A stretch of 64,000 bases of DNA. Origin: Methanobacteriota archaeon. Lineage in GTDB: Archaea > JAADCQ01 > Methanopyri > Methanopyrales > Methanopyraceae. A program made the translations under genes and the position numbers. The notes under the pieces were generated by a model that was given only the letters and a program-made list of their open reading frames with translations, was not told the origin of the DNA and ran no database searches. The DNA is taken from contig JAMOPO010000003.1 in the NCBI GenBank assembly GCA_027064425.1, positions 64,001-128,000 of the forward strand, written 5' to 3'. Each line of letters opens with the position of its first letter. Within the stretch, counting starts at the first letter, position 1. Of this stretch, positions 36,553 through 55,416 are shown piece by piece.

Positions 36553-36577
36553 AATCGTTATGAGTCCCATAACGATT
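36553..36577. repeat. 10-5-10 palindrome, copy A (3' of SRP RNA)
   Basis: AATCGTTATG-agtcc-CATAACGATT, perfect inverted repeat. Confidence 0.8.
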
Positions 36578-36586
36578 CCGCAGATG

Positions 36587-36918
36587 AACGGCGGCGGGCG
36601 CGCCGAGGGGTGGACCCGGTCCCCTCGGGGCCGGCTTCCCCCGGCCGACCTGCCTCCGGCGACCCCCGAGCGGCCGCGGGTCCGGGGTGGGCTGCTCCCT
36701 CTCGGGCCTGACCCGGTGCCCCGGCAAAGGCGGTGGCACGCCGCCCTCCGGCGGCGGCCCCGCCACCCCGGGCCCCCGGGGGGCCGGAGGGTCATCGGTC
36801 GGTCCGGGGGGGCCGGGCCCCCGAGGGGACCGGGCCGCCCCCTCGGCTTCGGCCCCCGCATGAGGCGGATTTCGGGTGACAGCGGACCGCCAGCCCGCCG
36901 GCCTAGCCCGCCGCCGTT
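36587..36918 (-). ncRNA. ffs: Archaeal SRP (7S) RNA
   Basis: Alu-domain GGGCTAGGCC...CCCGAAATC...ATGCGGGGGCCGAA; helix 8 TCAGGCCC-GAGA-GGGAGCAG; ends pair (AACGGCGGCGGGC/GCCCGCCGCCGTT). Confidence 0.93.
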
Positions 36919-36937
36919 GATCCCGGTGAGTCATCAC

Positions 36938-36950
36938 AATTTAACGGTTT
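36938..36950 (-). promoter_or_regulatory. BRE/TATA promoter for SRP RNA
   Basis: AAACCG-TTAAATT about 25 nt upstream of the SRP 5' end. Confidence 0.6.
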
Positions 36951-36956
36951 GGGTCG

Positions 36957-37436
36957 TCACTCGCGCGCCACGTACACGTACGCCTCGCACTCCCCGAGCG
37001 GCGTTTCGACGCGCTCCCTCCTCCGCTCGTACAGGGCGGGGTAACCCTCGTACCGGTCTATCTCGCGGATTTCCTCGTCACTGAGTCCCACCAGCAGCAC
37101 CCCGGAGACGCGAGACCCCTCCTTCTCGCGGATGGTGTTGTACCGGTTCCCCACGTCCTCCAGCGCGAGCTCGTAACCCTTCAGCACCGCCGGGTACACC
37201 ATGTAAGGGACCCGGCCGATGACGGACGCCACGGTTTCCGGATCCGTCAGCGTGCCGTAGGCGAACACGCGCTCCGGGGGCAAATCTTTAGGCACTTCAT
37301 CCTCCGGGCCGACGACGATCGCTTCCCCGCTGCTCTGGATGACGAACCGTAAGATGGCGCGCTCGTCTTCTTCCTCGTCCTCCTTCGGGAGGATCATCAG
37401 CCTGCCGCCGCGGCCCACGTACACGTGAACCTTCAC
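36957..37436 (-). CDS. Gamma-glutamylcyclotransferase (AIG2-like)
   Basis: VFAYGTL, IDRYEGYP.LYER, AYVY. Confidence 0.85.
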   Translation of the reverse strand: MKVHVYVGRGGRLMILPKEDEEEDERAILRFVIQSSGEAIVVGPEDEVPKDLPPERVFAYGTLTDPETVASVIGRVPYMVYPAVLKGYELALEDVGNRYNTIREKEGSRVSGVLLVGLSDEEIREIDRYEGYPALYERRRERVETPLGECEAYVYVARE

Positions 37437-37460
37437 ACGGCATCCCGGGGACCCGGTGCC

Positions 37461-39128
37461 GTGAGCGGGCTTATGCGTTTGTCGTTCAGACTACCTGGGG
37501 CGAGGACCTGCGCGGTAGCCTGGGCACTCGCGACGCTCGCAACGCTCGCGGCCTCTCCCCGGCTAACGGCGTACGCGCTCCTCCCCGTGCTAGGCTGCCT
37601 CTGCACGGTCCTCTCCGACCGGGTACGAGGCCGTGACGTGCCCGTCAACCGGTGGGTGTTCACCTGGGCGATCGCCGGCACGCTCGACCTGGTGGGAGCC
37701 GCTCTCGCGACCCTGGCACCCGCCGTCCTGGCGGCGGCTCGGGGACTCTCCTCCACGCTCCTGTCGCTGTCACTGCTCGGCACGGTCGAGCGGTCCCCGA
37801 TCAGGAGCGCCGCCGTCCTCCTCTACCTGGCGGCGAGCGCCATCCCGCTGTCGAGGGTGGCCAAGACGTCGCCGCTGCTCCCCCTCCTTCCATCTCTGAC
37901 CGGGTGGGTCATCGCCGCCCTCGCGATAACGGTCCTGGACACGGTCACCAAGGCCTCGCTGGGGATCGGTACCACGGAGGCGCTGGCGGAGTTTCTCAAG
38001 TTCAAGTCTGGCCGTAAGCACTCCCTGGACGCGATCTTCCGCCGGCTCAGCACGGTGACGCGCGTGACCGTCCCCGTGCGAGTCCTCGCCTTCCTAAGCT
38101 CCGGAAAGGTCGTAGGATGCTTCGTGATACCCTGGGTTCACCCGGGCCCGGTGGGGAAGATCGGGGGCGGAGACCTACCCGGTCGGATCGTGAGGAGGCT
38201 GCTCAAGCGGGGCGTGGTACCGCTCGTATTCCACTCCACGACCACGCACGACTTCAACCCAGTGGACCGTCGCGAGGCCGAGAAGGTCGTCGACGCGGTG
38301 GTCGAGCTGGTTCGGCGGGCGGAGGGCTCCCGCGGGTCCGCACGCGCGTCCCGGGCCGTGCGTGGGAGCGAGACGGACTCGATCGGCCAGGTGCTGGGGA
38401 ACCGGTTGTTCCTGGTCCTCTCCAAGTACCCTGAGCCCAGCGACGATATTGACCCCGCGACCGGCGTCTACATCGAGGCCAGGACGGGCGCGTGGGTGGT
38501 GGACGGTCACAACTGCTTCGGCGACCCCGAGGAGGGCCGCGTGCACGCGTTCTCCCCGGACTTCTGGCGGCTGCTGAACGACGCGCTCTCCATCTCGGAC
38601 CAGGTGGAGGCGACCACCGGCCTTCGAGCCGGGTTCGCTCACGCGGATCCGGAGCTGGGGCCGGAGTCAGGAGTGGGCAGCGGTGGAGTCTCGGTGGCGG
38701 CGGTGGAGGTGGACGATCATCGGACGCTGTACGTGGTCCTGGACTCGAACAGCATAGTCAGGGAGCTGAAGGAGCGCATCGAGCGGGAGCTGTCAGACCT
38801 TGCGGATGAGGTAGTGGTGTGTACCTCGGACTCGCACGAGGTGAACCCGCGCGGATATAACCCGGTTGGCGACGCGCTGGTGAAGGCGGACGAGGAGCTC
38901 GTCCGGGCCGTAAGGGAGGCGGCTGAACGGGCGGTTGACGGGCTCAAGCCCTGCGAGGTCGTGGAGCTGGAGGAGTGGGTCGAGGTCGCGGTCACCGGCC
39001 CGGGCAGCTTCCAGCAGCTGTCTCACTCCGTCAAGGTCGCCCAAAGGATGGTCAAGATACTCCTCCCCGCGGTCTTCCTGGGGGTGACGGTTCTTTCCAC
39101 GGTCACCGGGCTCTGGCTCCCGGGCTGA
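37461..39128 (+). CDS. DUF2070 family membrane protein
   Basis: TM N-terminus, VHPGP, H...THDFNP, DGHN, DSN, TSDSH; start uncertain (37425/37461/37473). Confidence 0.85.
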   Translation: MSGLMRLSFRLPGARTCAVAWALATLATLAASPRLTAYALLPVLGCLCTVLSDRVRGRDVPVNRWVFTWAIAGTLDLVGAALATLAPAVLAAARGLSSTLLSLSLLGTVERSPIRSAAVLLYLAASAIPLSRVAKTSPLLPLLPSLTGWVIAALAITVLDTVTKASLGIGTTEALAEFLKFKSGRKHSLDAIFRRLSTVTRVTVPVRVLAFLSSGKVVGCFVIPWVHPGPVGKIGGGDLPGRIVRRLLKRGVVPLVFHSTTTHDFNPVDRREAEKVVDAVVELVRRAEGSRGSARASRAVRGSETDSIGQVLGNRLFLVLSKYPEPSDDIDPATGVYIEARTGAWVVDGHNCFGDPEEGRVHAFSPDFWRLLNDALSISDQVEATTGLRAGFAHADPELGPESGVGSGGVSVAAVEVDDHRTLYVVLDSNSIVRELKERIERELSDLADEVVVCTSDSHEVNPRGYNPVGDALVKADEELVRAVREAAERAVDGLKPCEVVELEEWVEVAVTGPGSFQQLSHSVKVAQRMVKILLPAVFLGVTVLSTVTGLWLPG

Positions 39129-39129
39129 C

Positions 39130-40218
39130 GTGTACTGCACGGCGTTCGGACTCGGGTTCGGCCACGCCTCGCGGGTGCTGGGGATCACCCGGGAGCTGCT
39201 GAGGCTGGAGGCTGACGTCGTGCTGAGCTCCTTCGGGGAGGGGTGGAGGCTGCTCACCAGGGAGCTGCCCGACGCGACCGTGTACAGGATCCCGACGATC
39301 GAGATCTTCTCCCGCTCGGGCTCCTTCAGCGTAGTTCACGTGCTGAAGCGGCACCCCGATCTCCCGCTGCGGTTCTACGCCGGGCTCGAGCTGGACATGA
39401 GGATAATCCGGCGGCACGGCTGCCGGGTGGTAGTGTCCGACTGCCAGTTCCACGCGCTGGCGGCGGCGCGCCTGCTGGACGTGCCCGTCGTGCTGATCAC
39501 CAACCTCCTCCGGGTCCCGAACGCCGACCCGGCCTCGAGGCTAGTGAATTGGTTCCTGCGGGAGTTTCTCAGCCTGGCCGACGTCGTGATCGTCCCCGAT
39601 GCGCCCTTCGACGAGTCCACCGATCTCGACGCGGAGGTGGTCTGGGTGGGACCGATCCTCCGGGTCCGGCCGGACGAGCTCCCCGGCGAGCGGGAGATCA
39701 GGGAGCGCTTCGGTCTGCCTGAGGACACGCCGATCGTCCTAGTCACGGCCGGCGGTTCCCCGCACGGTAGACGGATCGTGGAGCTCGCCGTCGAGGGGAT
39801 CAGGCGACTCGAGGAGGATGTGTTCACGATCGTCGTGAGCAGCGGGCTGGGAGCCGAGATCCTGCGCGGGATTCCGGGCCGGGTCCTCAGCTACGTGGAC
39901 AACTTGATGGAACTGATCAAGGTGGCGGACGTGGTGGTCACTCACGGCGGGCACACCACCATCTCCGAGTGCGCCTGCCTAAGGACGCCGGTCGTGTCCA
40001 TCCCACTGCCCGGGCATCCGGAGCAGCTGATGAACGCCCGCCGGGTGGAGGAGCGGCGGCTGGGGGTCGCCCTGATGCCTGAGGACCTCTCGCCGGTCCG
40101 GGTGGCCGAGGCTATAAGGGATGCGATGGGCAGCCGGGTACCGCGGGCGCGATTGATGGACGGCAGGGGGGCGGAACGGGCTGCCCGCATCGTCCGGGAG
40201 GCAATGGACGCGCCGTGA
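39130..40218 (+). CDS. MurG-like GT28 glycosyltransferase
   Basis: GLGFGHASR, TAGGS, HGGHTTISE, P..HPEQ..NA. Confidence 0.85.
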   Translation: MYCTAFGLGFGHASRVLGITRELLRLEADVVLSSFGEGWRLLTRELPDATVYRIPTIEIFSRSGSFSVVHVLKRHPDLPLRFYAGLELDMRIIRRHGCRVVVSDCQFHALAAARLLDVPVVLITNLLRVPNADPASRLVNWFLREFLSLADVVIVPDAPFDESTDLDAEVVWVGPILRVRPDELPGEREIRERFGLPEDTPIVLVTAGGSPHGRRIVELAVEGIRRLEEDVFTIVVSSGLGAEILRGIPGRVLSYVDNLMELIKVADVVVTHGGHTTISECACLRTPVVSIPLPGHPEQLMNARRVEERRLGVALMPEDLSPVRVAEAIRDAMGSRVPRARLMDGRGAERAARIVREAMDAP

Positions 40219-40780
40219 GGTAGGCCGGCAGCTGATACACATCGGGTTCGGGCTGCTGTTCATGGTCCCCCTGCACCTGCTCGGCCCGATCAAGTTCTGC
40301 CTGTTCTTGCTCGCGATCCTCATCCCTGGTTTGGCCGTGTCCGCCTGCGTGCGCCGCGGGATTTACGTTCCGCTGATCACGGAGCTGGTGGAGACGTTCG
40401 AGCGACCAGAGGAGATGGAGCTGCCCGGGCAGGGCACCCTGCACTTCCTCACCGGCGTGCTGGTCGCGACCGCCATCGCCCGGCAGGTCCAGATCGTGGA
40501 CGTGGCGATCATCGTGCTGGCGGTGGGGGACGGCGTGTCCACGATCGTGGGGGTTCCGTTCGGCCGAACGCCGCTCCCCCACAACCCGGACAAGAGCTTA
40601 GAGGGCAGCCTGGCCGGCTTCGTCTCCGCGGCCGCGCTGGCCTCCATCTGGACGCGAGACCCGGCCGCGTCCGTGCTGGCCTCCCTAGTGGGGACCGCGG
40701 TGGAGACGCTGCCGGCGCTGAACGATAACGTCACCATTCCCATCGCCGTCTCTCTGTTCCTCCTCTGGTGGTGGTCCTGA
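40208..40780 (+). CDS. Polyprenol (dolichol/phytol) kinase-like membrane protein; non-canonical ACG start inferred
   Basis: EVGRQLIHI lies upstream of the first ATG (40262); GDGVSTIVG, KSLEGS, NDNVTIP. Confidence 0.8.
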   Translation, partial: TRREVGRQLIHIGFGLLFMVPLHLLGPIKFCLFLLAILIPGLAVSACVRRGIYVPLITELVETFERPEEMELPGQGTLHFLTGVLVATAIARQVQIVDVAIIVLAVGDGVSTIVGVPFGRTPLPHNPDKSLEGSLAGFVSAAALASIWTRDPAASVLASLVGTAVETLPALNDNVTIPIAVSLFLLWWWS

Positions 40781-41706
40781 TGAGACTGGCGATCACCGCG
40801 GCGGCCTCAGCCGCCGCCCTTGTCCTCGTGATGCTGTGGGGACCGGACTACCTTGCGCCCGCCGCGCTCATCCTGGAGGGGGGTAGCAAGCCGAAAGTGG
40901 TGGCGTTCTTGCTTCTGATGACCCTGACATCGGCCGCCGCGATCCTCCTCAGACTCCCCGATCGCAGGTGGGAGCTCGCACTCCTAATTCTCCCGTTCCT
41001 ATCGAACGCCCTCCACTGCGTCGGGGTGAGCTTGTCCGGGCTGCCGACGACCGTGGAGGTGTTCGTGTTCGACGGCACGAAGCTGGAGGGGGACTCGCCC
41101 TTCCACACCCACGTGGGCAAGTCTGCGGTCTCCACGGTGCTGCCCAGCTCCGCCGAGCCCGTCTCCGCGCACTCCGGCCGCTCGCTGTGCCGGGTTTACC
41201 CGGCGTCCGTCCGGGCCGCCGAGCTGGCGGTCGTAACCACCTCAGTGGTCCTCGCGGCCGCCGCCAGCCGCGGCCCGGTGACGTGCTTCGCCGGCTCCCT
41301 GCTGGCGATGAGCACGGTGGACGGGGGAGGATTCTCCCTTCCCTACATCAACGGGTGCTGGCTGATGGCCCTGACCGAGGCCGCTCGGGGAGGGAAGGTG
41401 GAGTCGGCGACGTTCGGCTTGGCAGCCCTGCTGTCCCCCTACGCCAAGATGGTGCTCGGGACTGAGGTCACGGCCCGGTACTACGGGTCGCGCTGGGACC
41501 GGATCCACGTGATCCCGGTGAACGTGCCCAAGCCGGTGCTGACCGAGGCGGGCGCCAGGCCGCTCGGACCCGGCGTTTACGCCATCAGGGCCCGAGACAG
41601 GTGCGCCTTCCTGCGCGGGCTCGAGCGCGGGCTGCGCGAGAGGAGGTGCCGGTGGGCCGAGGTCCTTCTGGTCCCAAACATCGGGGCGCACCTTACGACC
41701 GGCTGA
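40780..41706 (+). CDS. Hypothetical multi-pass membrane protein
   Basis: TGATG coupling to the upstream gene; several hydrophobic segments. Confidence 0.65.
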   Translation: MRLAITAAASAAALVLVMLWGPDYLAPAALILEGGSKPKVVAFLLLMTLTSAAAILLRLPDRRWELALLILPFLSNALHCVGVSLSGLPTTVEVFVFDGTKLEGDSPFHTHVGKSAVSTVLPSSAEPVSAHSGRSLCRVYPASVRAAELAVVTTSVVLAAAASRGPVTCFAGSLLAMSTVDGGGFSLPYINGCWLMALTEAARGGKVESATFGLAALLSPYAKMVLGTEVTARYYGSRWDRIHVIPVNVPKPVLTEAGARPLGPGVYAIRARDRCAFLRGLERGLRERRCRWAEVLLVPNIGAHLTTG

Positions 41707-42154
41707 CCCGACTCTCAACGAACTCCCTGAGAAGGTCTCTCTCAACTCCCAGGGCCTCGGCCAGCCTGTCCGTCGCCTCCCGGACGAAGTCCTCAACGAC
41801 CTCCTCCAGCTCCCGCTCCACCTCCTCCAACTCCTCCTCCAGTTCCTCAGAAGACCCGCTCAGCTTGGACTTCGACTTGCGCAGCTCCTCGTTGATGCGG
41901 TCCGCCCTCCGGCGGAGCTCGCGCACCTTCTGATCGACCTCCATCTCCCGCTCTACGACGCCGACGACCTCTTCGAAGTCGAACTCAGCCCGCACGATCC
42001 GCGTGAGCAGCCGGTCGAATTCGTCCTCCCCTAGGCGCCCTCGTAGGTGCTCGGTGAGCTCCTCCAGGAACCGCTCGACTCGGAGGGAGGTCTTCGGGTC
42101 CAGCTCTCGCAGCTTCCTGCCGAGCTCGGCCGGGTACGCCTTGAACGCTCTCAG
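41693..42154 (-). CDS. Hypothetical coiled-coil protein; CTG start inferred
   Basis: Coding-like frame extends 53 codons upstream of GTG 41995 to a CTG that overlaps the upstream stop. Confidence 0.7.
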   Translation of the reverse strand: MRAFKAYPAELGRKLRELDPKTSLRVERFLEELTEHLRGRLGEDEFDRLLTRIVRAEFDFEEVVGVVEREMEVDQKVRELRRRADRINEELRKSKSKLSGSSEELEEELEEVERELEEVVEDFVREATDRLAEALGVERDLLREFVESRVSRS

Positions 42155-43368
42155 CTCCCCTCACCCGCCCTGCGCTCCAGCTCCTCGATCCGAATGGGCA
42201 GCCGGTCCTCGGGGGATATCTTGCGGATGTACCTGCGCCTGAACCTCGGATCCTGCATCCGGCATCGGTCGCTCCAGCGCTTCCACTCCGGGTGCGAGGT
42301 GAGCCTCTTCCACGCCTTCTTGAGCCCTACCTCGCGCACGTTGCCGAACGAGATCGGGGTAAAGTCGCAGGGGGTTACCTCCCCGTCGTTGGTCACGTGA
42401 CACTGGACGTAGCCCGCGAAGCACCCCGACCCGTGCCGGCTGTTCACGTACGACATCACGGACACGCGCGGGCCCGACCGCTTGTCCCGGTTCCATCGTA
42501 GGTGCAGGTCAACGAGCTCCTCCCGGTGGCGCTTGGACAGGATGACGTCCTCCCGGTGGAGCAGGCGGCCGGTGGGCACGGCGTCGAACACGGTAACCTC
42601 GTGCACACCCAGCCGGGCGGCCAGCCTGAGGAGGTCCTCCACCTTGCCGGTCTCAACGGCCTCCGGGGTGGCGTACGTTGAAATGCCCACGAGCACGCCC
42701 GCATCCAGGCAGGCTCGAATACCCTCCAGGCACCGGTCGAAGAGCCCCGGAACCCCGCGCAGCTCGTCGTGCTCCTCCGGATCGGGGCTGTCGATGCTCA
42801 CGTGGACCGCGTAGACGCCCGCCTCGGCGAGCTCGTCGACCCGCTCCCGCAGGTTGTACCCCGCGGTGAACACCGCTGCGATCGCCTTGTCAGGGTCGAC
42901 GCTCGAGATCAGCTCGGGCAGATCCTCCCTCAGCAGCGGGTCACCTCCGGTGAAGGTCACGTTGTACGTGCCGAGGTCCAGAGCGTCCTCGATGACCTCC
43001 TTCCACTCCTTGGTGGACAGCTCCTTCCGGCTCCTCCGGGCCGCGCTGCAGTGCACGCAGTTGCACGGACACCTGGCGGTCACGGCCATGGTGATGGCCT
43101 CGGGGATCCGGCGCCTGAGCAGCTCGGACTTCAGCCTGGCCTTAATCAGCCGGATGAAAGCCTTGCTGGGGAGCGGGGGTAGGTACAGGGAGAAAACTAT
43201 CCTGTCCTCTAGGACGGCGGCCGGCTTCTCCTCCTCCAGGTGCCTGAGCAGCTTCTTGAGCGGGCTCAAGAGCCTCGCCAGCCGGCCCGAGAGCTCGAAG
43301 CTAACCTCTCCCTCGTTCACCACGGCCTCCAGCCTCACGCCCGGCTTATCGACCAGAGTCACTCGCAA
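42151..43368 (-). CDS. Radical SAM protein with SPASM/twitch domain
   Basis: CPCNCVHC, FTGGDP, GCFAG...GEVTPCDF, C-terminal CRM. Confidence 0.9.
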   Translation of the reverse strand: MRVTLVDKPGVRLEAVVNEGEVSFELSGRLARLLSPLKKLLRHLEEEKPAAVLEDRIVFSLYLPPLPSKAFIRLIKARLKSELLRRRIPEAITMAVTARCPCNCVHCSAARRSRKELSTKEWKEVIEDALDLGTYNVTFTGGDPLLREDLPELISSVDPDKAIAAVFTAGYNLRERVDELAEAGVYAVHVSIDSPDPEEHDELRGVPGLFDRCLEGIRACLDAGVLVGISTYATPEAVETGKVEDLLRLAARLGVHEVTVFDAVPTGRLLHREDVILSKRHREELVDLHLRWNRDKRSGPRVSVMSYVNSRHGSGCFAGYVQCHVTNDGEVTPCDFTPISFGNVREVGLKKAWKRLTSHPEWKRWSDRCRMQDPRFRRRYIRKISPEDRLPIRIEELERRAGEGS

Positions 43369-43374
43369 GGCGCG

Positions 43375-44448
43375 CTAGAGCCCCAGTCCGCGGTGAGGTA
43401 TCCGAATGTTGAGGATGAGCAGGGCCAGCGCCGCCAGCGTGACCGTGGTCACGATCTTGGAGGCGGCCTCCCGGCCCAGCACCTCGCGAAGCGCCTCCTC
43501 CAGGATCCTTCCCCCGTCCAGGGGCTTGATCGGCAGTAGGTTGGCCACGCCGACACCCAGGGACAGCAGCCCCAGCAGGTTCAGGAAGGCCAGCAGGTCG
43601 ATCGCGACCTCGGACACCCGGTAGCCACCGAAGTTGGGTATCACGTACACGCCCAGCACGGGCCTGCCCCGCCACAGCCTCACCTTAACGCGCTTGGTAC
43701 CCCGATCCGTCTTCACCGTGACCGTCTCGCCGGGCCTGTGACGGCCCACCTCGTTCCTAAGGTCCTGGATAGTGCTCACCTGTTTGCCCTCCACGCTAAC
43801 TATCCGCTCGCCCGGCTCGAGCGGGACGTCCTTGAACACCTTCCCGTGGACGATGACCCCGCTGCCCGCCAGTACGGGGGCGTAGGCGAGCAGGGTCACG
43901 AGCGCCCAGCAGACGAAGTACGTGAGCACGTTGAACGCCGGGCCGGCGCTCAGGATCTCGATGCGGTGCCTAAGCCGGGCCCGCTCGAACTCCTCCCGAT
44001 CCGGCTCGACGAACGCGCCGGGGAAGATCAGGAGCAGGAAAAACCCGACGCGCCGAATCCTGACACCGGTCAGCCGGAGCGCCACCGCGTGCCCCAGCTC
44101 GTGAACGATGAGTATGGTTGCGAGCGACACCGCCCCGGAGACCAGCGGTATCGTCACGCCCGGGAGCAGGGGCACGAACTCGCCACTCCCCGGTCCCGAC
44201 GTCGCGATCCCCCTCACCAGCAGGAACGTCGCCAGGCCGAGCCCGGCCACTCCTATCACCGGGGAGAGCTTAACCAGTACCCGGAGGATCACCCCCGACC
44301 GGCCGCTGACCAGCCGCTCCAGCCCGGGCACCCGGTCGGTGTACTTGTAGAGGACTCCCCACCGGAACTCCATTCCCAGGATCCTGCCCAGACCCGCGGC
44401 GACGGCGATCGCGATCGCCAGCGCCAGGATGGTGCTTACCTCCACCAC
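43375..44448 (-). CDS. Site-2 protease (M50) with PDZ-like insert
   Basis: HELGH, GAFVEP, SAGP, NLLPIKPLDGG. Confidence 0.92.
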   Translation of the reverse strand: MVEVSTILALAIAIAVAAGLGRILGMEFRWGVLYKYTDRVPGLERLVSGRSGVILRVLVKLSPVIGVAGLGLATFLLVRGIATSGPGSGEFVPLLPGVTIPLVSGAVSLATILIVHELGHAVALRLTGVRIRRVGFFLLLIFPGAFVEPDREEFERARLRHRIEILSAGPAFNVLTYFVCWALVTLLAYAPVLAGSGVIVHGKVFKDVPLEPGERIVSVEGKQVSTIQDLRNEVGRHRPGETVTVKTDRGTKRVKVRLWRGRPVLGVYVIPNFGGYRVSEVAIDLLAFLNLLGLLSLGVGVANLLPIKPLDGGRILEEALREVLGREAASKIVTTVTLAALALLILNIRIPHRGLGL

Positions 44449-44471
44449 AACGCCCCCAGGAGTGATCCACG

Positions 44472-45155
44472 ATGAAGGAGGTCAGGTACTCCGACGAGCG
44501 TTGGAAGCTTCTGGAGAAGCTCCGCGAGAAGGCCCGCCGAGTGGTCGAAACGCTCTCCAACCTGGGGCTGGAGGGCTGGGTGCACGGTAGCGTGGCTCGA
44601 GGTGACGTCAGGAAGGGCAGTGACGTGGACGTGTTCGTCCCCCAACCGGTGTCCCCACACACCGTTGACGCTCTGGTTGAGTCCGCCCCGTACGAGGTCC
44701 TTAAGATTGTGGCCACGCTGCCCACGCCCAGGGACTGCGTCCGGGTCAAGGTCAAGATGGAAGGCGACGTGGAGGTCACCGTCCCCATCACGACACCCTC
44801 GGACCGGGAGCTCGAGTTCTACGACTTCTCCGGTAAGCTGACACCCGAGGCGCTGGACCGGGACGAGCGCGTGCCCGGTGTCAACAAGCAGCTCAGGATG
44901 ATCGAGCCCCGGCCGTGGGGCCACGTCGAGTACTCCATTCTCGGTCGGGAAGGCGAGGTGGCCTCCAAGCTGGGGATCAGCGTGCAGCTCGTCAACGAGC
45001 GGATCAAGGCCCTCACGCGCAGGGATAAAGTAGGTGTCCAGGGGGTCCACGCCAAGGTCGAGGGTCGGCCGGGTGAGCCCACGGTCGAACTGCTCCGGCG
45101 GCTGGCCCGGAGCAACCCCAAGGCGGCGGAGAAGCTCTCGGACCTGGGGGTGTAA
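44472..45155 (+). CDS. Archaeal nucleotidyltransferase-domain protein (COG2413-like)
   Basis: HGSVARGDV..SDVD, EFY.F.G, RVPGVNKQL. Confidence 0.85.
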   Translation: MKEVRYSDERWKLLEKLREKARRVVETLSNLGLEGWVHGSVARGDVRKGSDVDVFVPQPVSPHTVDALVESAPYEVLKIVATLPTPRDCVRVKVKMEGDVEVTVPITTPSDRELEFYDFSGKLTPEALDRDERVPGVNKQLRMIEPRPWGHVEYSILGREGEVASKLGISVQLVNERIKALTRRDKVGVQGVHAKVEGRPGEPTVELLRRLARSNPKAAEKLSDLGV

Positions 45156-45157
45156 CC

Positions 45158-46197: not shown

Positions 46198-46241
46198 TCC
46201 CTCCCCACGCGCCCGCGCAATCGTTCTTGGGGAGCTAACGT

Positions 46242-47891: not shown

Positions 47892-47893
47892 AC

Positions 47894-48973
47894 ACGGAGA
47901 ACGTCGTCCGCGGTGAGCTGCCCAAAGGCTGCCGGCTCTGCGTCAAGGGCGCCAAGCTGGTGGTCTTCATCACCGGCGAGTGCGAGCGGGGCTGCTGGTA
48001 CTGTCCCGTCTCCCCAGAGCGCAAGGGCCGGGACGTGATGTACGCCAACGAGCGGCCGGTGCGCGGCGAGCGGGACCTGCTGGAGGAGGCGGAAATTATG
48101 GACGCCAAGGGGGCCAGCCTGACGGGAGGCGACATCACCCTGCGGCTCGACCGCTGCGAGGAGGTGGTAACCACCCTGAAGGGCGAGTTCGGTGAGGACT
48201 TCCACGTCCACGCGTACGTGCCGGCGGAGTCCGTGAGCCGAGAGGCGCTCGACAGGCTCTCGGAGGCTGGCCTCGACGAGCTCCGGATCCACCCGTCCTT
48301 TAACGAGGACATCAACGAGCGGGCCGCCCGGTTGGCCTCAGAGTACGACTGGGACGCTGGATTCGAGATGCCCGCGATCCCCGGTCGGGAGGACTGGATC
48401 GTGGAGGTGGCGAGGCTGTCGGAGCGGCACGGGCTGGACTTCTTGAACGTTAACGAGCTCGAGTTCACCGAGTCGAACGCCGAGGAGCTCAAGGTGCGCG
48501 GGTTCAAGCGGGTGAGCGAGGACTCCGACGCCGTGCAGGGCAGCGAGGAAACGGCGATAAGGGGTCTCGCCAGGGCCGCGAAGGAGGTCTCCATCACGCT
48601 GCATTACTGCCCGTCCGTCGTTAAAGACTCCGTCCAGCTGCGCGAGCGGCTCAAGCGAACCGCCCTGAACGTGGCGGAGGAGCACGAGATGGTCGACGAG
48701 GACGGCCTGATCGTCCGCGGAGAGATTAGAGTGAAATCCGGCGACCCGGAGGACGTCGCCCGGGTGCTGACGGAGATCCTGGAGGTGCCGGAGGAGTGGG
48801 TGAGGGTGCGCACGGACCGGGTGGAGGTGAAGCCCGTAGTCCTGGAGGAGCTGGCCGACCTCCTGGACGACATCGCCGAGGCGGCCGGGTGCGAGCTCGA
48901 GGCCGTGATCGTTCGGGAGTACCCGACGTGGGACCGGACCGTGGTGGAGGTGTGGCCGGTTGGGGGTGAGTGA
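47894..48973 (+). CDS. Radical SAM protein (COG2108-like); non-canonical ACG start inferred
   Basis: Conserved GELPKGC..C.KGAK lies upstream of the first GTG (47960); CERGCWYCP, LDELRIHP, NELEF. Confidence 0.85.
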   Translation, partial: TENVVRGELPKGCRLCVKGAKLVVFITGECERGCWYCPVSPERKGRDVMYANERPVRGERDLLEEAEIMDAKGASLTGGDITLRLDRCEEVVTTLKGEFGEDFHVHAYVPAESVSREALDRLSEAGLDELRIHPSFNEDINERAARLASEYDWDAGFEMPAIPGREDWIVEVARLSERHGLDFLNVNELEFTESNAEELKVRGFKRVSEDSDAVQGSEETAIRGLARAAKEVSITLHYCPSVVKDSVQLRERLKRTALNVAEEHEMVDEDGLIVRGEIRVKSGDPEDVARVLTEILEVPEEWVRVRTDRVEVKPVVLEELADLLDDIAEAAGCELEAVIVREYPTWDRTVVEVWPVGGE

Positions 48974-49483
48974 GTGACCCGGAGGAGGGGGAGGATCTCG
49001 GCCCGGACGCTGCGGCACGTCGGCCGGGTCTGGCGGGTGGCGATGTACGCCGGCTCCGTCCTGACGATCCTGCTGATCGCCCTCCTCACCGTGACGTCCA
49101 TCAGCCAGTACAGCTACGAGGCCCAGGTCCTGCTGTTCGGTAACTACGCGGACCAGCTGAAGCACATCAACGCGGAGTACGAGCGGCTGAGAGTGGAGTT
49201 CATGAAGACCAACGAGAGACTTCGGACGCTGCGAGAGATGTACCCGATCCCGGGCCCGGAGCTGCACCGCGTCGAGAAGATCAGGGCTAAGGCGTCGCTG
49301 GAGCTCGCCTCCCTAAACGAGAAGCGCAAGGATGCGGAGTTCGCGGTGTACGTCATGCACGACCCGGCAACGTCGGACGTCAAGATCGGCGAGTGCCTGG
49401 CGGAGCTAAGGAGGGCCAGGATGGCCGTCAGGGCCTTCGCTAGGGCGGTCAACGAGCTTGAGAACAAGTACGCACGCGGCTGA
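48974..49483 (+). CDS. Membrane-anchored coiled-coil hypothetical protein
   Basis: Basic N-terminus, single TM helix, heptad-rich remainder. Confidence 0.7.
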   Translation: MTRRRGRISARTLRHVGRVWRVAMYAGSVLTILLIALLTVTSISQYSYEAQVLLFGNYADQLKHINAEYERLRVEFMKTNERLRTLREMYPIPGPELHRVEKIRAKASLELASLNEKRKDAEFAVYVMHDPATSDVKIGECLAELRRARMAVRAFARAVNELENKYARG

Positions 49484-50780
49484 CCGAGCGGAGGTCGAGC
49501 TGGGAGCCATCCACGAACGGCTCGACGTGAGGTTGGAGGACAGGCGCCTCAAGTTCACCCTGTACGACCTGATCGAGTTCGAGGTCGACCCCTCGGAGCT
49601 CGCCCGGATGGTCTCCGCCCTGCTCTCCCGGATCGAGCGGCGGCACGTACCGGCCAGCGTCGACGGGACCCGGGTCGCGGCATCCACCGACCGGAGAACC
49701 CTCAAGGAGGTCCTCCAGCAGCTGATCTCACGGCTCGCCGGGGAGGCCGGGACCCACGCTCACACCCGCCGCCGCCTGATTTACATTTCGGAATCCTCCG
49801 GCATCCCCCTCATCGGTCACTCCGCCTTCGGCATCATCGATCGGGGTACCAACGTGCTTCAGGTCCGCCCCATCACCGGGTGCAACCTCTGCTGCATCTA
49901 CTGCAGCGTGGACGAGGGGTGGGTGTCGCGCACCCGCTGGCGGGACTTCATGGTGGACCCGGACTACCTGCTGGACTGGTTCCGGGAGATCGCCGACTTC
50001 AAGGGGGAAGGGGTCGAGGCCCACATCGACGGACAGGGCGAGCCGACCCTGTACCCGTTCCTACCAGATCTAGTGCAAGGGTTGAAGGAGCATCCCAACG
50101 TCGACGTCGTCTCCATGCAAACCAACGCCGTCCCGCTGGACGAGGACTACGTCGACGAGCTCGTCGAGGCGGGCTTGGACCGGTTTAACGTCAGCATCAA
50201 CAGCCTGGACCCGAAGAAGGCGCGCGCGATGGCCGGCTCGAAGGACTACGACGTCCGGCACGTGATGCGAATCGCCGAGTACATCGCCAAGGAGACCCGC
50301 GCGGACGTGCTCCTGGCGCCCCTGTGGCTGCCCGGGTACAACGACGAGGACATCGTGGAGATCATCGAGTTCGCGGTCGAGATCGGGGCGGGCGAGCGGT
50401 GGCCACCGCTCGGGATCCAGAACTACCTGGAGTACCGGTTCGGTCGGAGGCCCAAGTTCTTGCGCAGGGTCGTCCCGATGAAGGAGTTTTACCGGTGGCT
50501 TCGAGAGCTCGAGCGTAAGACGGGGGTCAGACCGCTGGTGCTGAAACCCGAGCACTTCGGTACGGAACCGCGGAAGTCCCTCCCCAAGCCCTTCCGCCGC
50601 GGCGACAGGGTTCAGGCGGAGGTCGTGTCGGAGGGGCGCATTCGAGGCGAGATGATCGCCCGGGCCTCGGACCGCGTGATCGCGGTCCCGGACTCCGCCA
50701 AGAAATTAAGCGTGGGTGACGTCGTGGAGCTGCGGATAACTCGGGATAAGCACAACATCTTCGTGGGGGAGCTCGCGTAG
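49458..50780 (+). CDS. Radical SAM protein with TRAM domain (COG2100-like)
   Basis: PLIG..FGIIDRGTN, GCNLCCIYCSVD, AHIDGQGEP, C-terminal RDKHNI; start uncertain. Confidence 0.88.
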   Translation: MRTSTHAADRAEVELGAIHERLDVRLEDRRLKFTLYDLIEFEVDPSELARMVSALLSRIERRHVPASVDGTRVAASTDRRTLKEVLQQLISRLAGEAGTHAHTRRRLIYISESSGIPLIGHSAFGIIDRGTNVLQVRPITGCNLCCIYCSVDEGWVSRTRWRDFMVDPDYLLDWFREIADFKGEGVEAHIDGQGEPTLYPFLPDLVQGLKEHPNVDVVSMQTNAVPLDEDYVDELVEAGLDRFNVSINSLDPKKARAMAGSKDYDVRHVMRIAEYIAKETRADVLLAPLWLPGYNDEDIVEIIEFAVEIGAGERWPPLGIQNYLEYRFGRRPKFLRRVVPMKEFYRWLRELERKTGVRPLVLKPEHFGTEPRKSLPKPFRRGDRVQAEVVSEGRIRGEMIARASDRVIAVPDSAKKLSVGDVVELRITRDKHNIFVGELA

Positions 50781-50792
50781 GGGGGCGCTCGC

Positions 50793-51272
50793 ATGGCTGA
50801 GGAGACCGAGGAGAAGTCCTCGGAGGAGAAGGGAGAGGAGGACATCCCGGACTGGTGGGAGAAGGAGTGGGCGGAGTTCCGGTACCGCGGTTACACGCTG
50901 GACGAGCTGATGAAGATGCCGCTGGAGGAGTTCATCGAGCTCCTACCGGCGCGCCAGCGTCGCTCGCTGAAGCGTGGATTGCCGTCCAGGCACAAGAAGC
51001 TGCTGCAGAAGGTCCGGCGGGCCCGGAGGCTCCTGCGGCGCGGTAAGAAGCCGCCGGTGATCCGGACGCACTGTCGGGACATGATCATCCTGCCGGAGAT
51101 GGTCGGACTGACCATCGCCGTGTACAACGGTAAGGAGTTCAAGGAGGTCAAGATCGAGCCGGAGATGATCGGGCACTACCTCGGCGAGTTCTCGAAGACC
51201 AGGAAGAAGGTCGAGCACGGCGACCCGGGCATCGGCGCCACGCGGAGCTCACTCTTCGTACCGCTCAAGTGA
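50793..51272 (+). CDS. rps19p: 30S ribosomal protein S19 (uS19)
   Basis: [40 protein letters not shown]. Confidence 0.97.
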
Positions 51273-51953
51273 GGCCGCTGGGAACCGGAGCCGGACCCCG
51301 TACAGGGACACCCGGCCGCCGAGCTCCTGCACACGGCGTATCAGATTGAGCTCCATCCAGTCGTCGCGGACGCACAGCCACCGCTCCAGCAGTCCATCGT
51401 ACCCGGTGACCGCCCTGGCCTTCCCCACTCGAACGTCCTCCTCGCCCCTCAGCAGCCCCTTCAGCTCGTCTCCCACGCGGTTGACTGCCTTTTTCACGCT
51501 CCAGTCGTTGTCCAGATCGTACTCCCGGAGGTAGTACAGCGCGATTTTAAGTGGCTCCAGCGCCGAGCCGCCGCGCCACTTGATGGTCCGCTCCACGGAA
51601 GCCTCGGCGGTAACGGTCACCTCCTCCGCGTCCAGCTCCCGGGACTCCATCTCGCACTTTTCGAACTGGACCGCGATCACGGTCAAGAACTTTGAGTCTC
51701 CCAGCCGGCGCGCCCGGAGCCCGAACGTGTACCTGGCGTCATCGACGGGCCCGTCCACGAGCGAGTTCGTGGGCACGTCCTCGTCCCGGCGCGTCCAGAG
51801 CGTTAACGAGCACTCCACCTCGGAGTACTCCCGGGCGGGCGAGTGTGCGACCATCTCGGTCAGCGTCTCGTAAACGCTGACAACCTGGCCCTTGTCGAGC
51901 TCCAGAGCGTGACGCCGCGCCAGCTTCGCTCCCGTTTTATGGACCGTGATCAC
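51249..51953 (-). CDS. Hypothetical protein
   Basis: Fills the gap between rps19 and the B12 radical SAM gene; start inferred at GTG 51953/51956. Confidence 0.6.
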
Positions 51954-51975
51954 CACCCCCTGGGGAGGTCGGCTG

Positions 51976-53430
51976 TTGAGCCTCGACGTGCTCTTGGTGA
52001 ACCCGCCGGATGTCACGACTAAGTACGAGCGCTTCCTGGGGATCACGGCACCGCCCCTGGGGATGGCCTACATAGCGGCCGTGCTGGAGGAGGCAGGGTA
52101 CAGCGTTCGCATCCTGGACTGCCCGCCGCTGGAGATGAGCTGGGAGGAGTTCCGCAGGACCGTCCGGCGGCTGAAGCCTAAGATCGTATCCATAATGGCG
52201 ACGACCCCGATCATCAGCCAGGCCTACAAGGCCGCCAAGATCGTGAAAGAGGAGCTCGAGGACGCCATCGTGTGCCTCGGCGGTTACCACCCCACGTTCA
52301 TGGACGTGGAGTGCCTCCGGGAGTGCGAGCACGTTGACATCGTTGTTCGCCGGGAGGGAGAGTTCACCCTGCTCGACCTCGTCCGGGCCTTCATCGACGG
52401 GGTGAAGTCGCTCTCGGACATCCTCGGCATCACGTACCGGAGGGAGGACGACATCGTCCGGAACCCGGATCGGCCACTGATCCAGGACCTGGACGCGCTG
52501 CCGCTCCCGGCTCGGCACCTGCTTCCGATGGACCGGTACACGTTCTTCGGGACCAGGACGAGCGCGACCACCGTGATCACCAGCCGAGGGTGCCCCGTCG
52601 GCTGCGACTTCTGCGCCTCGTCCCAGATGCATGGCCGGAAGCTCCGCATGCACTCCGCCGAGCGCGTCGTATCGGAGGTGGCGCACGTCCACGAGCGCTA
52701 CGGCTCGGACATCATCGCCTTCGTCGACGACACCTTCACCTACGACCGGCGCCGGGTGGAGAAGATCTGCCGGCTGATGATCGAGGCCGGACTCGACGTA
52801 ACCTGGGGTTGCGCCGCCCGCGTGGACACCATCGACCGGGAGCTGCTCGAGCTGATGCGGGAGGCCGGCTGCTCCGTCCTGTTCTTCGGCGTGGAGTCCG
52901 GCTCCCAGGAGATCCTGGACAACGTGGGGAAGGGATTCACCGTCCGGCAGACGAAGCGGGCGTTCAAGCTCTGCCGGGAGATGGGCATCCGGACGGTCGC
53001 GTCCGCCGTCATCGGCCTGCCGGGCGAGACCCACGAGACCGCCCGGGCCACGATCAAGCTGCTGAAGGAGCTCGACCCGGACTACGCCGTGGTCTCCGTC
53101 GCCACCCCGTACCCCGGCACCAGGTTCTTCCAAGAAGTCATCGAGGAGGAGCTTCTGGTCGAGGAGGACTGGGACAAGTTCACCCTGATGGAGCCGGTGG
53201 CGGCCACCACCGAGCTCTCCCCGGAGGAGATCAAGCGGTACCAGCGTCGCGCCATGCTGGAGTTCTACCTGCGACCCCGCTACCTGCTCCGGCGCATCAA
53301 GGAGGATGGTCTGGACGCCATCCGCGTCGCCGGCACCATGATGGCCGAGGTGACGTTCAAGAAGCTGAAAGCCCTGATCTCGCGCCTCCCCAGCCCTAGG
53401 TTCTCACACCGTGAGGACTCGGACGAGTGA
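51976..53430 (+). CDS. B12-binding (class B) radical SAM enzyme
   Basis: LVNPP...PPLG.AYIAA, GGYHPT, EGE, SRGCPVGCDFC, GVESGS, PYPGT; TTG after GGAGGT. Confidence 0.9.
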   Translation: MSLDVLLVNPPDVTTKYERFLGITAPPLGMAYIAAVLEEAGYSVRILDCPPLEMSWEEFRRTVRRLKPKIVSIMATTPIISQAYKAAKIVKEELEDAIVCLGGYHPTFMDVECLRECEHVDIVVRREGEFTLLDLVRAFIDGVKSLSDILGITYRREDDIVRNPDRPLIQDLDALPLPARHLLPMDRYTFFGTRTSATTVITSRGCPVGCDFCASSQMHGRKLRMHSAERVVSEVAHVHERYGSDIIAFVDDTFTYDRRRVEKICRLMIEAGLDVTWGCAARVDTIDRELLELMREAGCSVLFFGVESGSQEILDNVGKGFTVRQTKRAFKLCREMGIRTVASAVIGLPGETHETARATIKLLKELDPDYAVVSVATPYPGTRFFQEVIEEELLVEEDWDKFTLMEPVAATTELSPEEIKRYQRRAMLEFYLRPRYLLRRIKEDGLDAIRVAGTMMAEVTFKKLKALISRLPSPRFSHREDSDE

Positions 53431-54379
53431 CGTACGCCCGGTACCCCATCGCGTCGATCAAGGCCGCCGCCGTCTCAGCCCGCGACTCGTCATCGAACAG
53501 GCCGATCGCGCACCCACCTCCACCGGCTCCAGTCACCTTGGCACCCAGCGCCCCCGCCCGCCGAAGCGCGTGCACGATCTCGTCCAGCTCCCGAGTCGAG
53601 ACGCCCAGCGCGGAGAGAAGGCCGTGGTTCACGTCCAGCAGCTCACCGAGCCTCCTCAGGTCTCCGGACTCCAAGGCCCCCTCCACCTTGAGAACCAAGT
53701 CACCGATGGCCTCCATCACCCGCTCTCCGACCGACCCCACCGAGTCCAGCAGCTCGGCGACCCGGTCGACCATCTCCCCGGTCCTCGACGGCCGGCCCGA
53801 GTACGCGATCACCAGGACCAGGTCCTCCGGGCAGTCCAGTCGCCTGAACTCGCGCCCCGTGATCGAGAGCACGCCACCGTAGGTAACGGTCGTCGGGTCG
53901 ACCCAGCTGGCCCTGCCCTGCACGTCCAGCTCAACCCGCCGGACGAGCTCGCGCAGCCGGTCCCGGCTCAGCTCTTCCCCCGAGAGGCTCGCCAGGGCGG
54001 CGATGACCCCGGCGCTCACCGCGGCCGACGTCCCCAGCCCGCTGGCCGGGGGCGCCTCGCCCCTAATCCTCACCTCCGCCGGCGGGGGCGAGAACTCCTC
54101 CGTGCACAGCCCGATGGCCGACGCCACGTAGCTGAGCTCCCTGCCCAGCCCCGGGGAGGACACCCGCCGAACGTCTCCGGACGGCGTCACCGTGGCTCGC
54201 ACCTCTCCCAGCGCCTGCTCGCCCAGCTCGGTCCGGACCGAAAACGCGTCTCCGTCGGACTCCTCGGCCTCCACCTCCACGTACAGCTCGACCGCGGCCG
54301 ATATGGCGGGGTGCCCGTACACCGCCGCGTGCTCTCCCGAGAGGATAACCTTCAATGGAACCCTGACGTGGGCACCCAA
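53396..54379 (-). CDS. mvk: Mevalonate kinase
   Basis: PLKVILSGEHAAVYG, PPASGLGTSAA, QGRAS, GAKVTGAGGGG; TTG start at 54379. Confidence 0.93.
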   Translation of the reverse strand: MGAHVRVPLKVILSGEHAAVYGHPAISAAVELYVEVEAEESDGDAFSVRTELGEQALGEVRATVTPSGDVRRVSSPGLGRELSYVASAIGLCTEEFSPPPAEVRIRGEAPPASGLGTSAAVSAGVIAALASLSGEELSRDRLRELVRRVELDVQGRASWVDPTTVTYGGVLSITGREFRRLDCPEDLVLVIAYSGRPSRTGEMVDRVAELLDSVGSVGERVMEAIGDLVLKVEGALESGDLRRLGELLDVNHGLLSALGVSTRELDEIVHALRRAGALGAKVTGAGGGGCAIGLFDDESRAETAAALIDAMGYRAYVTRPSPHGVRT

Positions 54380-54430
54380 CGGGCCCCACCCCTGAGCCCG
54401 CCGAGCGGCCTCGACCCCGGGTGATACGCC

Positions 54431-55261
54431 TTGCGGATCCCCCGAACGCTGGAACCCGTGGTTAGCGACGAGTTCGTCGAGAGCCTCGACGACCTGGTCG
54501 CCCGCATCAACGAGGCGGAGCTGAGCTCCGGCCTCATCCGGATCACCAAGCGGGTCGAGCGCGACCTGTACGACGCCATCATCCTCGTCCTGAACGGCGC
54601 GGTGGCGCACCTGCAGGTGGAGAACGTGACCTCCAGGGAGCGCTGGGAGGGGGAGGAGGCGCTGGACGTCCTCCGAGAGATCCTGGCGGACATCAGCCCC
54701 GAGGACCCCGCCGTCCTGGATATTTACCGCGGGCCGGGCCGAGAGGTCGAGTCCTTCGCCCGATACCAGCTGGGCGTGGAGGAGCTCGGCGAGTACGACC
54801 TGGCGTCGGTTATCATGGAGGCCTACGAGGAGGCGGGTGCCGCCGAGGGGGAGGAGAAGGTCGTAGAGTTCAGCGAGGAGGCGGAGGAGAAGCCGGAGGC
54901 CGAGGCCGGCGCTGAGGTCGAGGCTGAGGTTGAGGAGGGGGTCGAGAAGGAGAAGGAGAAGGAGGAGGTCGAGGAGCTGTCCCGAGAGGAGCTGCTCGAG
55001 AAGTACGGGATTAAGGAGCCCGACGAGTCCTTCGTCGAGTCGGTGCTGGAGGACATGACCGGGCCCTCCGAGGACCTTCACAAGCAGGTCGAGCGGGTGC
55101 TGCGAGGATACGGTATCACCATCTTCCAGCTGTCCGGGGTCGTCCTCGTGGACCCCCGCAGCGAGGAGGACGTCAAGCACATCGAGGAGGCTGTCGAGGA
55201 CATGAAGGAGGACCTCGGACTCAACGAGATCTCCGTCCGGATCCGCGGGAAAAACATTTAA
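54431..55261 (+). CDS. Acidic hypothetical protein, DUF2226-like
   Basis: SGLIRI, LDIY, SREELLEKYGIKEPDE.FV; SD GGGGTGA. Confidence 0.7.
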   Translation: MRIPRTLEPVVSDEFVESLDDLVARINEAELSSGLIRITKRVERDLYDAIILVLNGAVAHLQVENVTSRERWEGEEALDVLREILADISPEDPAVLDIYRGPGREVESFARYQLGVEELGEYDLASVIMEAYEEAGAAEGEEKVVEFSEEAEEKPEAEAGAEVEAEVEEGVEKEKEKEEVEELSREELLEKYGIKEPDESFVESVLEDMTGPSEDLHKQVERVLRGYGITIFQLSGVVLVDPRSEEDVKHIEEAVEDMKEDLGLNEISVRIRGKNI

Positions 55262-55262
55262 C
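55251..55262 (+). promoter_or_regulatory. BRE/TATA promoter of tRNA-Arg
   Basis: AAAACATTTAAA about 30 nt upstream of the tRNA. Confidence 0.65.
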
Positions 55263-55292
55263 CGCCCCCGACCGGAGGTGACACGGAGCGTC

Positions 55293-55370
55293 GGGCCGGC
55301 AGCTCAGTCTGGACAGAGCGCGGGCCTTCGGAGCCCGTGGTCCCGGGTTCAAATCCCGGCCGGCCCACCA
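55293..55370 (+). tRNA. tRNA-Arg(TCG), intronless, CCA encoded, C at position 8
   Basis: GGGCCGG-CA-GCTC..GAGC-G-CGGGC-CT TCG GA-GCCCG-TGGTC-CCGGG-TTCAAAT-CCCGG-CCGGCCC-ACCA. Confidence 0.97.
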
Positions 55371-55375
55371 GCCCG

Positions 55376-55400
55376 AATCGTTACGAAGTCCGTAACGAAT
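55376..55400. repeat. 10-5-10 palindrome, copy B (3' of tRNA-Arg)
   Basis: AATCGTTACG-aagtc-CGTAACGAAT. Confidence 0.8.
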
Positions 55401-55416
55401 CTTGGGGCGTCCCGCG

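Follow-up and report, generated by a model that had tools for sequence, protein, structure and literature searches.

Two copies of the same AT-rich palindrome lie behind two stable RNA genes in a stretch of 64,000 nucleotides (nt) from a Methanobacteriota archaeon, namely positions 64,001 to 128,000 of contig JAMOPO010000003.1 (assembly GCA_027064425.1). This whole stretch, C3:64001-128000 in our contig numbering, is called the window, and its genome G000. Copy A of the palindrome, or dyad, follows the RNA of the signal recognition particle (SRP), and copy B follows a tRNA-Arg gene. What is such an element doing at the end of a gene, and is it read as DNA or as RNA? It is found here to mark 3' ends of stable RNA and protein genes throughout the genus, and it is tentatively read as a site on duplex DNA at which a protein may stop some of the transcribing polymerases.

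A dyad behind stable RNAs and protein genes

The consensus of the element, AATCGTTAYGA-N3-TCRTAACGATT, is a perfect 11-3-11 inverted repeat of 25 base pairs (bp) with the core CGTTA ... TAACG. It is AT-rich, as had been pointed out at the start, and the genome (1.54 Mb in 57 contigs) has 67.8% GC. The two palindromes that the original prediction had placed at 36553-36578 and 55375-55400 are real, and their limits are now set at 36553-36577 and 55376-55400. Their presence in the window is beyond chance, as the pattern with up to three mismatches is matched there four times as against none in 100 shuffles. Throughout the genome, the exact pattern is present at seven sites (none in a reversed control), and a fuzzy search returned 95 places. 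A symmetric weight matrix, trained on the RNA-linked copies and used at a cut-off of at least 12 bits, gave 110 sites as against none in the reversed genome. The published core CGTTA-N9-TAACG is present in both window copies and has 38 exact matches per strand in the genome.

As had been proposed, the copies are enriched 3' of stable RNAs and are far from random. The tRNA set was merged from ARAGORN and Rfam calls, of which 35 were kept. Three calls made by ARAGORN only (C15:145874, C15:250588 and C57:86033) were dropped before counting; they are without CCA, Rfam support and dyad. The dyad is present behind all 35 tRNAs, mostly exactly 5 nt past the encoded CCA. In 32 of them the site starts 4-8 nt past the annotated 3' end, with the core CGTTA about 8-11 nt past the CCA, and in the remaining three it lies 8-13 nt past a 3' end that Rfam sets without the CCA. 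The genes for 5S, 16S and 23S rRNA, SRP RNA and RNase P RNA are all followed by it (Table 1). A weak match to a C/D-box small RNA (sRNA) on contig C2 has a dyad 24 nt downstream, and the C/D-box sRNA of the window (Rfam sR47, 41.5 bits, 15902-15957, plus strand) has none behind it. The element is not generally carried by C/D sRNAs.

The spacer between CCA and site is uniform within a genome and differs between genomes. It is 5 nt in 15 of the 19 copies of G000 and 7 nt in 12 of the 15 copies of G004, another genome of the genus. The change is a concerted shift over dozens of loci and speaks for a trans-acting machine that has a ruler.

The original prediction of a signal at stable-RNA 3' ends was right as to the 3' end, but the signal is not specific to stable RNAs, since 52 protein genes carry it within 75 nt of the stop codon. 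Genes were called with a crude codon-score caller (1308 coding sequences, or CDSs, covering 81% of the genome), for which stops are reliable and starts are not. In these 52 CDSs (56 CDS-site pairs), the stop codon is followed by the dyad at a distance of 8-72 nt, most often 13-14 nt, and pieces of the palindrome are the top enriched 6-mers downstream of stop codons. Pfam assigns the CDSs to, among others, the thermosome, McrB, McrA, A-type ATPase subunit A (AtpA), EF-1beta, rubrerythrin, an F420-hydrogenase subunit and the ribosomal proteins S15, L7Ae, L32e, S10 and L10. Judging by such names, many of them are probably highly expressed.

The spacers between genes give the same picture. A dyad is present in 29 of 101 convergent spacers (0.73 sites per kb), in 45 of 387 tandem spacers (0.35 per kb) and in just 2 of 183 divergent ones (0.03 per kb), one of which lies behind an unannotated open reading frame (ORF) of 67 codons. 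Convergent and divergent spacers differ with a Fisher p of 1.2e-12. The density of the dyad tracks the number of 3' ends per spacer and is strongly non-random. Copy A is itself a convergent case, as had been predicted. It lies between a CDS of the PALP family on the plus strand and the SRP RNA on the minus strand, 14 nt from the stop codon of the former and, by Rfam boundaries, 14 nt from the 3' end of the latter; its place behind the SRP RNA had been recognised correctly, and the distance of about 9 nt given for it had not. Copy B starts 5 nt past the CCA of tRNA-Arg, or 4 nt, as first stated, if the preceding G is counted, and it ends 3 nt before a GGGG (55404-55407) that resembles a Shine-Dalgarno (SD) sequence.

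The dyad is conserved in place. The orthologue of copy A is kept in all five sister genomes (six of the genus in all), that of copy B in all four sister genomes from which this locus was obtained (five genomes including G000), and a copy between mcrB and mcrD in six of six (orthologues L125-L129), while the flanks have diverged in each case. A 14-base core of the element is present in all six genomes of the genus, in 5 to 39 places each, and is absent from 35 other archaeal genomes of 29 families. When one genome per species was scanned for 185,579 species, 23 loci were returned. Fourteen of these belong to three metagenome-assembled genomes titled Methanopyri or Methanobacteriota archaeon, and the other nine are single matches in unrelated bacteria, as expected by chance. 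Viral contigs gave no match, and a viral or mobile origin was rejected on this ground. That the genome belongs to the Methanopyrus lineage is supported by its genes for methyl-coenzyme M reductase (MCR) and by a C at position 8 in 30 of its 35 tRNAs, a feature mentioned as a Methanopyrus hallmark in the accessible part of PMC5217627. The dyad is genus-wide in Methanopyrus-type archaea (Methanopyri) and is found essentially nowhere else.

A second, C-rich motif (approximately CCCYCACGCCCC) was observed between the stop codon and the dyad of many protein genes, for example at C26:19972-20002, C15:42883-42915 and C5:10119-10138. At the mcrB site, it is kept in G000, G003, G004 and G005, with degenerate forms in G001 and G002. 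CYCACGCC has 360 matches in the genome, 15 of which lie within 20 nt after a stop codon as against an estimated 3 or so by chance.

Independent arms of the palindrome

A palindrome behind a gene can serve as a hairpin in the RNA or as a symmetric site in the DNA. Among the 110 copies, Watson-Crick pairing at each mirrored position equals the expectation for independent arms (all Fisher p > 0.09). The mean of 7.900 pairs out of 11 compares with 7.888 ± 0.082 when the right arms are permuted among sites (p = 0.46), and the core is perfectly paired in only 19 of the 110 sites. Nor is G·U preferred on the sense strand, where 31 G·U combinations compare with 41 of A·C. The flanks add no pairing by which the stem could be extended; positions 26-50 are G/C-rich, and no U-tract was seen after the stem. 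The pairing of the arms is not under selection. The T-A/C-G swap between copies A and B, which had been described as compensatory, is true of these two copies, but no such tendency exists genome-wide over the 110 copies, and the swap is a coincidence.

The same is observed across the genus. In 64 tRNA-linked copies from the six genomes, positions 9 and 17 of the sense strand hold C-G in 21, U-A in 13, C·A in 24 and U·G in 6. In G004, 12 of the 15 tRNA-linked copies have C·A and none has U·G. The two halves are non-equivalent in that genome, with TTACG proximal to the gene and CATAA beyond it, and the site therefore has a polarity relative to transcription. Because the arms vary independently and the sense RNA of G004 has C·A mismatches, we read the element as a site on double-stranded DNA to which a dimeric protein would bind, and not as an RNA hairpin. 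Conservation of each arm, without covariation between the arms, is the pattern expected from a symmetric protein dimer bound to duplex DNA and not from a hairpin. The hairpin was rejected as a candidate, as per-position covariation, arm permutation, G·U against A·C by strand and flank pairing were all without signal. Of the functions first proposed, the processing hairpin is accordingly disfavoured, and both DNA-level options, a roadblock terminator and a dimeric binding site, may be retained.

Competing explanations and a possible leaky stop

The usual signals at gene borders do not account for the dyad. Gene ends show no enrichment of oligo-T: runs of five T are present in 3.9% of 3' flanks and in 5.2% of 5' flanks. 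There is no run of at least five T behind the 35 tRNAs or behind the two window RNAs, as had been predicted for the latter, and none at or after the dyad. A canonical oligo-T terminator was therefore rejected. The tRNA promoters have ordinary TATA boxes and TFB-recognition elements (BRE), and these, together with the near absence of the dyad from divergent spacers, rule out a promoter reading. No AT-rich stretch or TATA box is present after either dyad half.

The dyad could instead act in the transcript, as a 3' stem-loop that blocks exonucleases or guides the 3' processing of tRNAs, rRNAs and mRNAs, in the way that hairpins of repetitive extragenic palindromic (REP) sequences stabilise the upstream mRNA. 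The perfect 11-3-11 symmetry of the consensus would suit it, and so would sites that lie directly past RNA 3' ends and within operons (mcrB-mcrD), which fit a stabiliser or processing signal better than a full terminator. The spacing of 13-14 nt from stop codons equals a ribosome footprint, and a 3' maturation signal has been proposed for tRNAs (PMC5217627, in the accessible part of the paper). Against this stand the lack of pairing beyond that of independent arms and the rarity of perfect cores described above. Mid-stem A·A, C·A and U·U mismatches are common; the genus-wide excess of C·A over U·G, which is strongest in G004, is not that of a stem; and the mcr orthologues in G001, G002 and G004 break the stem and keep CGTT/AACG. 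An AU-rich stem of 11 bp would also be odd in a genome of 68% GC, and a tRNA maturation signal does not explain the element behind protein genes. A stem-loop function is, on balance, unlikely.

A comparably low probability is given to a DNA site for an architecture or topology protein, that is, a boundary or insulator, or a site where a topoisomerase is loaded or cleaves and so absorbs the supercoiling behind heavily transcribed genes. The binding of gyrase to BIME/REP elements in bacteria would be a parallel. This explanation also takes the dyad as DNA and agrees with its place behind the most heavily transcribed genes (stable RNAs, mcr, thermosome and ribosomal proteins) and with the copies tolerated within operons. 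A lineage-restricted motif would fit a lineage-restricted protein, and Methanopyrus presumably has its own topoisomerase V. However, a fixed ruler of 5 or 7 nt from the CCA and a minimum of 8 nt after stop codons point to coupling with transcript ends and not to a loose domain boundary, and the known topoisomerase sites are not long dyads. Less probable still are back-to-back BRE-like boxes, read by TFB or a second paralogue of it, for the hand-over or recycling of polymerase or as a decoy. The outward half-site GTAACGATT does resemble the BRE and first TATA bases of the genome's own tRNA promoters (consensus GAAACGTTT), with a best column correlation of 0.54 that was reached by 52 of 2000 column shuffles. 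Two distinct genes for TFB, a TFIIB-like factor, are present, at C52:163436-163990 (minus strand) and C45:7890-8404 (plus strand), the second being cut by the contig end. The similarity is nevertheless modest (p of about 0.03 after the choice of the best offset), neither half is followed by a TATA box, divergent promoter spacers are nearly devoid of sites, and C21 is invariant in the dyad where promoters have A or C. Stable binding of DNA by TFB is also not known without TBP. Finally, the dyads recall bacterial REPs in being short extragenic palindromes, about 110 in number, with an enrichment at 3' ends and in convergent spacers, and a mobile or selfish palindrome, of the REP type or that of miniature inverted-repeat transposable elements, could have accumulated by chance in 3' spacers. 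This is highly improbable in view of the exact spacing to all tRNA ends and of orthologous copies over six genomes with diverging flanks; moreover, there is no longer repeat unit, no conserved flank, no hairpin covariation and no copy in viral contigs.

The explanation favoured here, which we hold as tentative and only a little short of an even chance, is that the dyad is a gene-end element read as duplex DNA, a putative protein-dependent and leaky terminator or attenuator. The two half-sites, each conserved independently, would together be bound by a dimeric DNA-binding protein that is specific to the lineage, and RNA polymerase coming from either direction would be halted or released by the bound dimer. 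The dyad would thereby mark the 3' boundary of transcription units, with a single copy serving both genes of a convergent pair, and aCPSF1, which is present in the genome, could finish termination. A stop by a dimer on the dyad would explain the symmetry of the site, the copy shared by convergent pairs, the lack of T-tracts and the fixed short distance to RNA ends. Both the binding of a protein and termination as its outcome are what we infer from these features. TFS is the factor that rescues arrested polymerase. It was not found in this genome, the best match being a partial one of 21 bits at C15:25482-25592 against a cut-off of 64.75. This agrees with the statement, in the accessible part of PMC7289017, that among archaea TFS is lacking only in M. 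kandleri.

Several observations weigh against a terminator. A coding ORF starts within 45 nt downstream in 19 of the 56 oriented copies, and in 12 of these, copy B included, an SD-like G-run comes directly after the dyad and leaves no room for a promoter. The mcrBDCGA operon carries its dyad at C26:20003-20027, between mcrB and mcrD and directly before the SD and start of mcrD. A strong terminator at this place would starve mcrCGA, and thus termination is partial there or the function is a different one. Because some copies sit inside operons before SD-led genes, termination would have to be incomplete; at such copies (mcrB-mcrD, copy B) the leaky stop would act as an attenuator, or the protein would have another role. 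The geometry raises a further difficulty. A classical roadblock stops polymerase some 12-15 nt before the bound protein, and with 5-7 nt from CCA to site such a stop would truncate the tRNA. At so short a distance, the polymerase has to run into the first half-site before stopping, and this is not predicted by a simple roadblock. The mode of 13-14 nt after stop codons equals the downstream footprint of a ribosome and would also suit an element at the RNA level. About 90% of the examined 3' flanks are without a dyad, and the dyad therefore cannot be the sole terminator. Lastly, no binding protein was identified, although no scan of the whole proteome was made. A Myb-type reader was rejected, as PF00249 had no match at E <= 0.1 in this genome, which is 99% complete; mTERF was not searched.

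The terminator reading can be carried further, though at this length it becomes doubtful. A lineage-specific dimer on the dyad may have taken the place of oligo-T terminators at every stable-RNA gene and at many strong protein genes, as a counterpart of Reb1/TTF-I and mTERF, with a 2-nt shift of the ruler between species and half-sites that are perhaps derived from the BRE.

RNA data were available as four small-RNA runs (X1-X4) in the form of contigs, whose RNA ends are unreliable, over the orthologous 20 kb of G002, in which the SRP RNA is barely covered. Among the contigs listed, a single A-tailed one ends at L026:19671, that is, at dyad position 7/8 and within the first half-site behind tRNA-Arg, and another at L026:449, 7 nt before the dyad on the SRP side. 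A minus-strand contig ends at L026:384, beyond the SRP-side dyad. Each is one contig from one run and was not counted as evidence.

Table 1. Positions of the two window copies, of their neighbours and of other dyad-bearing RNA genes (positions are those of the window unless a contig is named)
Feature	Position	Strand	Dyad, nt from 3' end	Remarks
Copy A of the 25-bp dyad	36553-36577	.		AATCGTTATGAGTCCCATAACGATT = AATCGTTATGA-GTC-CCATAACGATT
Copy B of the 25-bp dyad	55376-55400	.		AATCGTTACGAAGTCCGTAACGAAT = AATCGTTACGA-AGT-CCGTAACGAAT
Archaeal SRP RNA	36592-36913	-	14	Rfam RF01857, 123.4 bits, above gathering score; upstream gene of copy A
tRNA-Arg(TCG)	55293-55370	+		ARAGORN and Rfam; C at position 8; CCA encoded; upstream gene of copy B
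Pyridoxal-phosphate-dependent enzyme CDS	35321-36538	+	14 (from stop codon)	Pfam PALP PF00291, E = 6.8e-85
Small coiled-coil-like ORF	55417-55632	+		71-76 aa across genomes; TTG start conserved in the retrieved sister genomes
5S rRNA			11
RNase P RNA			23
16S rRNA			83 and 275	Fragment at contig end
23S rRNA			133 and 396	Fragment at contig end
Intron-bearing tRNA-like gene	C27:32047-32162	-	5	116 nt

Some features around the two copies were also recorded. The PALP-family gene is one that we take to be threonine-synthase-like. The coiled-coil-like ORF after copy B (within 55402-55632) overlaps the start of an ORF of 421 amino acids (55583-56848), and, because there is no promoter room between copy B and the ORF, both appear dependent on transcription from tRNA-Arg. 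The CCA of tRNA-Arg(TCG) is encoded in G000, G003 and G005 and not in G001 and G002 (L018/L019 compared with window 55367-55375). With or without an encoded CCA, this tRNA has its discriminator base at nearly the same distance (10-11 nt) from the dyad core.

Other copies lie where no gene had been called. For the tRNA-like gene on C27, Rfam gives only a sub-threshold 'tmRNA' score of 29 bits, and it is probably an intron-bearing tRNA overlooked by the tRNA finders. At C15:289839-289868, a tRNA-like T-arm, the 3' strand of an acceptor and a CCA are followed by a dyad 7 nt on, with no gene call from ARAGORN or the Rfam tRNA model; this is possibly a tRNA of unusual, split or intron-rich form. 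Dyads also cluster in ORF-poor stretches on C2 (514, 1173, 2999, 3123 and 3337), C48 (674 and 891) and C15 (345499 and 345596). Such clusters probably mark unannotated small RNA genes, which is consistent with the one weak C/D-box match on C2.

Earlier reports and known systems

The motif itself is known. In a motif-discovery study of 2017 (PMC5217627, accessible part), CGTTA(N)9TAACG was reported for M. kandleri AV19, in which about half of the tRNA genes have it some 10 bp downstream; it was called specific to M. kandleri, with a role in 3' maturation as a speculation. The dyad described here agrees with it in core, in palindromic logo, in its restriction to the lineage and in its place about 10 bp past tRNAs. 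However, whereas about half of the tRNAs carried the published motif, going by that part of the paper, the dyad is present here behind 35 of 35 tRNAs, behind every other stable RNA found and behind 52 protein genes. The scaling of its density with 3' ends, the lack of covariation between the arms and the genome-specific spacer ruler also go beyond that report. As far as the literature was searched, the general gene-end role, the DNA-level reading, the genus-wide ruler and the protein-gene copies are new, and the published guess of a tRNA-maturation signal is corrected. A study of M. kandleri small RNAs (PMC3695527), by term search of its main text and spreadsheet supplement, mentions neither the motif nor 3' trailers nor a terminator, and the tRNA and C/D sRNA sheets of its Table S1 hold neither 'trailer' nor 'precursor'. 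In their accessible parts, two reviews of termination (PMC7289017, 2018, and PMC13675443, 2026) do not mention the motif, and the latter does not mention Methanopyrus. Full-text literature searches returned no other report of the motif and no binding protein.

If the terminator reading is correct, an archaeal, sequence-specific, DNA-bound terminator would exist in the one lineage (Methanopyrus) that has been reported to be without TFS. This would offer a handle on factor-dependent termination in Archaea, with the 25-bp site as a pull-down bait and a clean in vitro test. The spacers of 5 and 7 nt and the asymmetric half-sites of G004 are natural variants with which the mechanism could be studied. 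In the annotation of Methanopyri genomes, the dyad is a sharp marker both of the ends of genes and of RNA genes that have been missed.

Among known palindromes, REP sequences and bacterial interspersed mosaic elements (BIME) are similar in several ways. They too number about 100 short palindromes per genome and are found 3' of genes, in convergent spacers and in operons, and they are bound by proteins such as gyrase and IHF. However, REPs are GC-rich hairpins with compensatory changes, which are spread by RAYT and are variable in position, whereas the dyad has fixed orthologous positions and its pairing is not selected. Termination in Archaea is described as relying on oligo-T signals together with aCPSF1/FttA and Eta (PMC7289017, PMC13675443 and PMC9371683, in their accessible parts), and no sequence-specific DNA-bound terminator was described for Archaea in the literature searched. 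As in the canonical process, aCPSF1 is present here, and the dyad occupies the place usually taken by oligo-T, but has no T-run at or after it.

A closer likeness is offered by Reb1, Nsi1 and TTF-I of the Pol I system and by mTERF of mitochondria, which likewise use a duplex DNA site just 3' of stable-RNA genes and need no long T-run. By its position the dyad is such a site, and its duplex reading would follow from the independence of the arms. In the Pol I roadblock, a hairpin helps release (PMC13675443, accessible part), and here too a structured RNA end lies just upstream. The sites of Reb1, TTF-I and mTERF are asymmetric and read by Myb-like or mTERF proteins, whereas the Methanopyrus site is a dyad and no Myb domain was found. 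Unlike those sites, it is also present behind mRNAs and lies only 5-7 nt from the RNA end.

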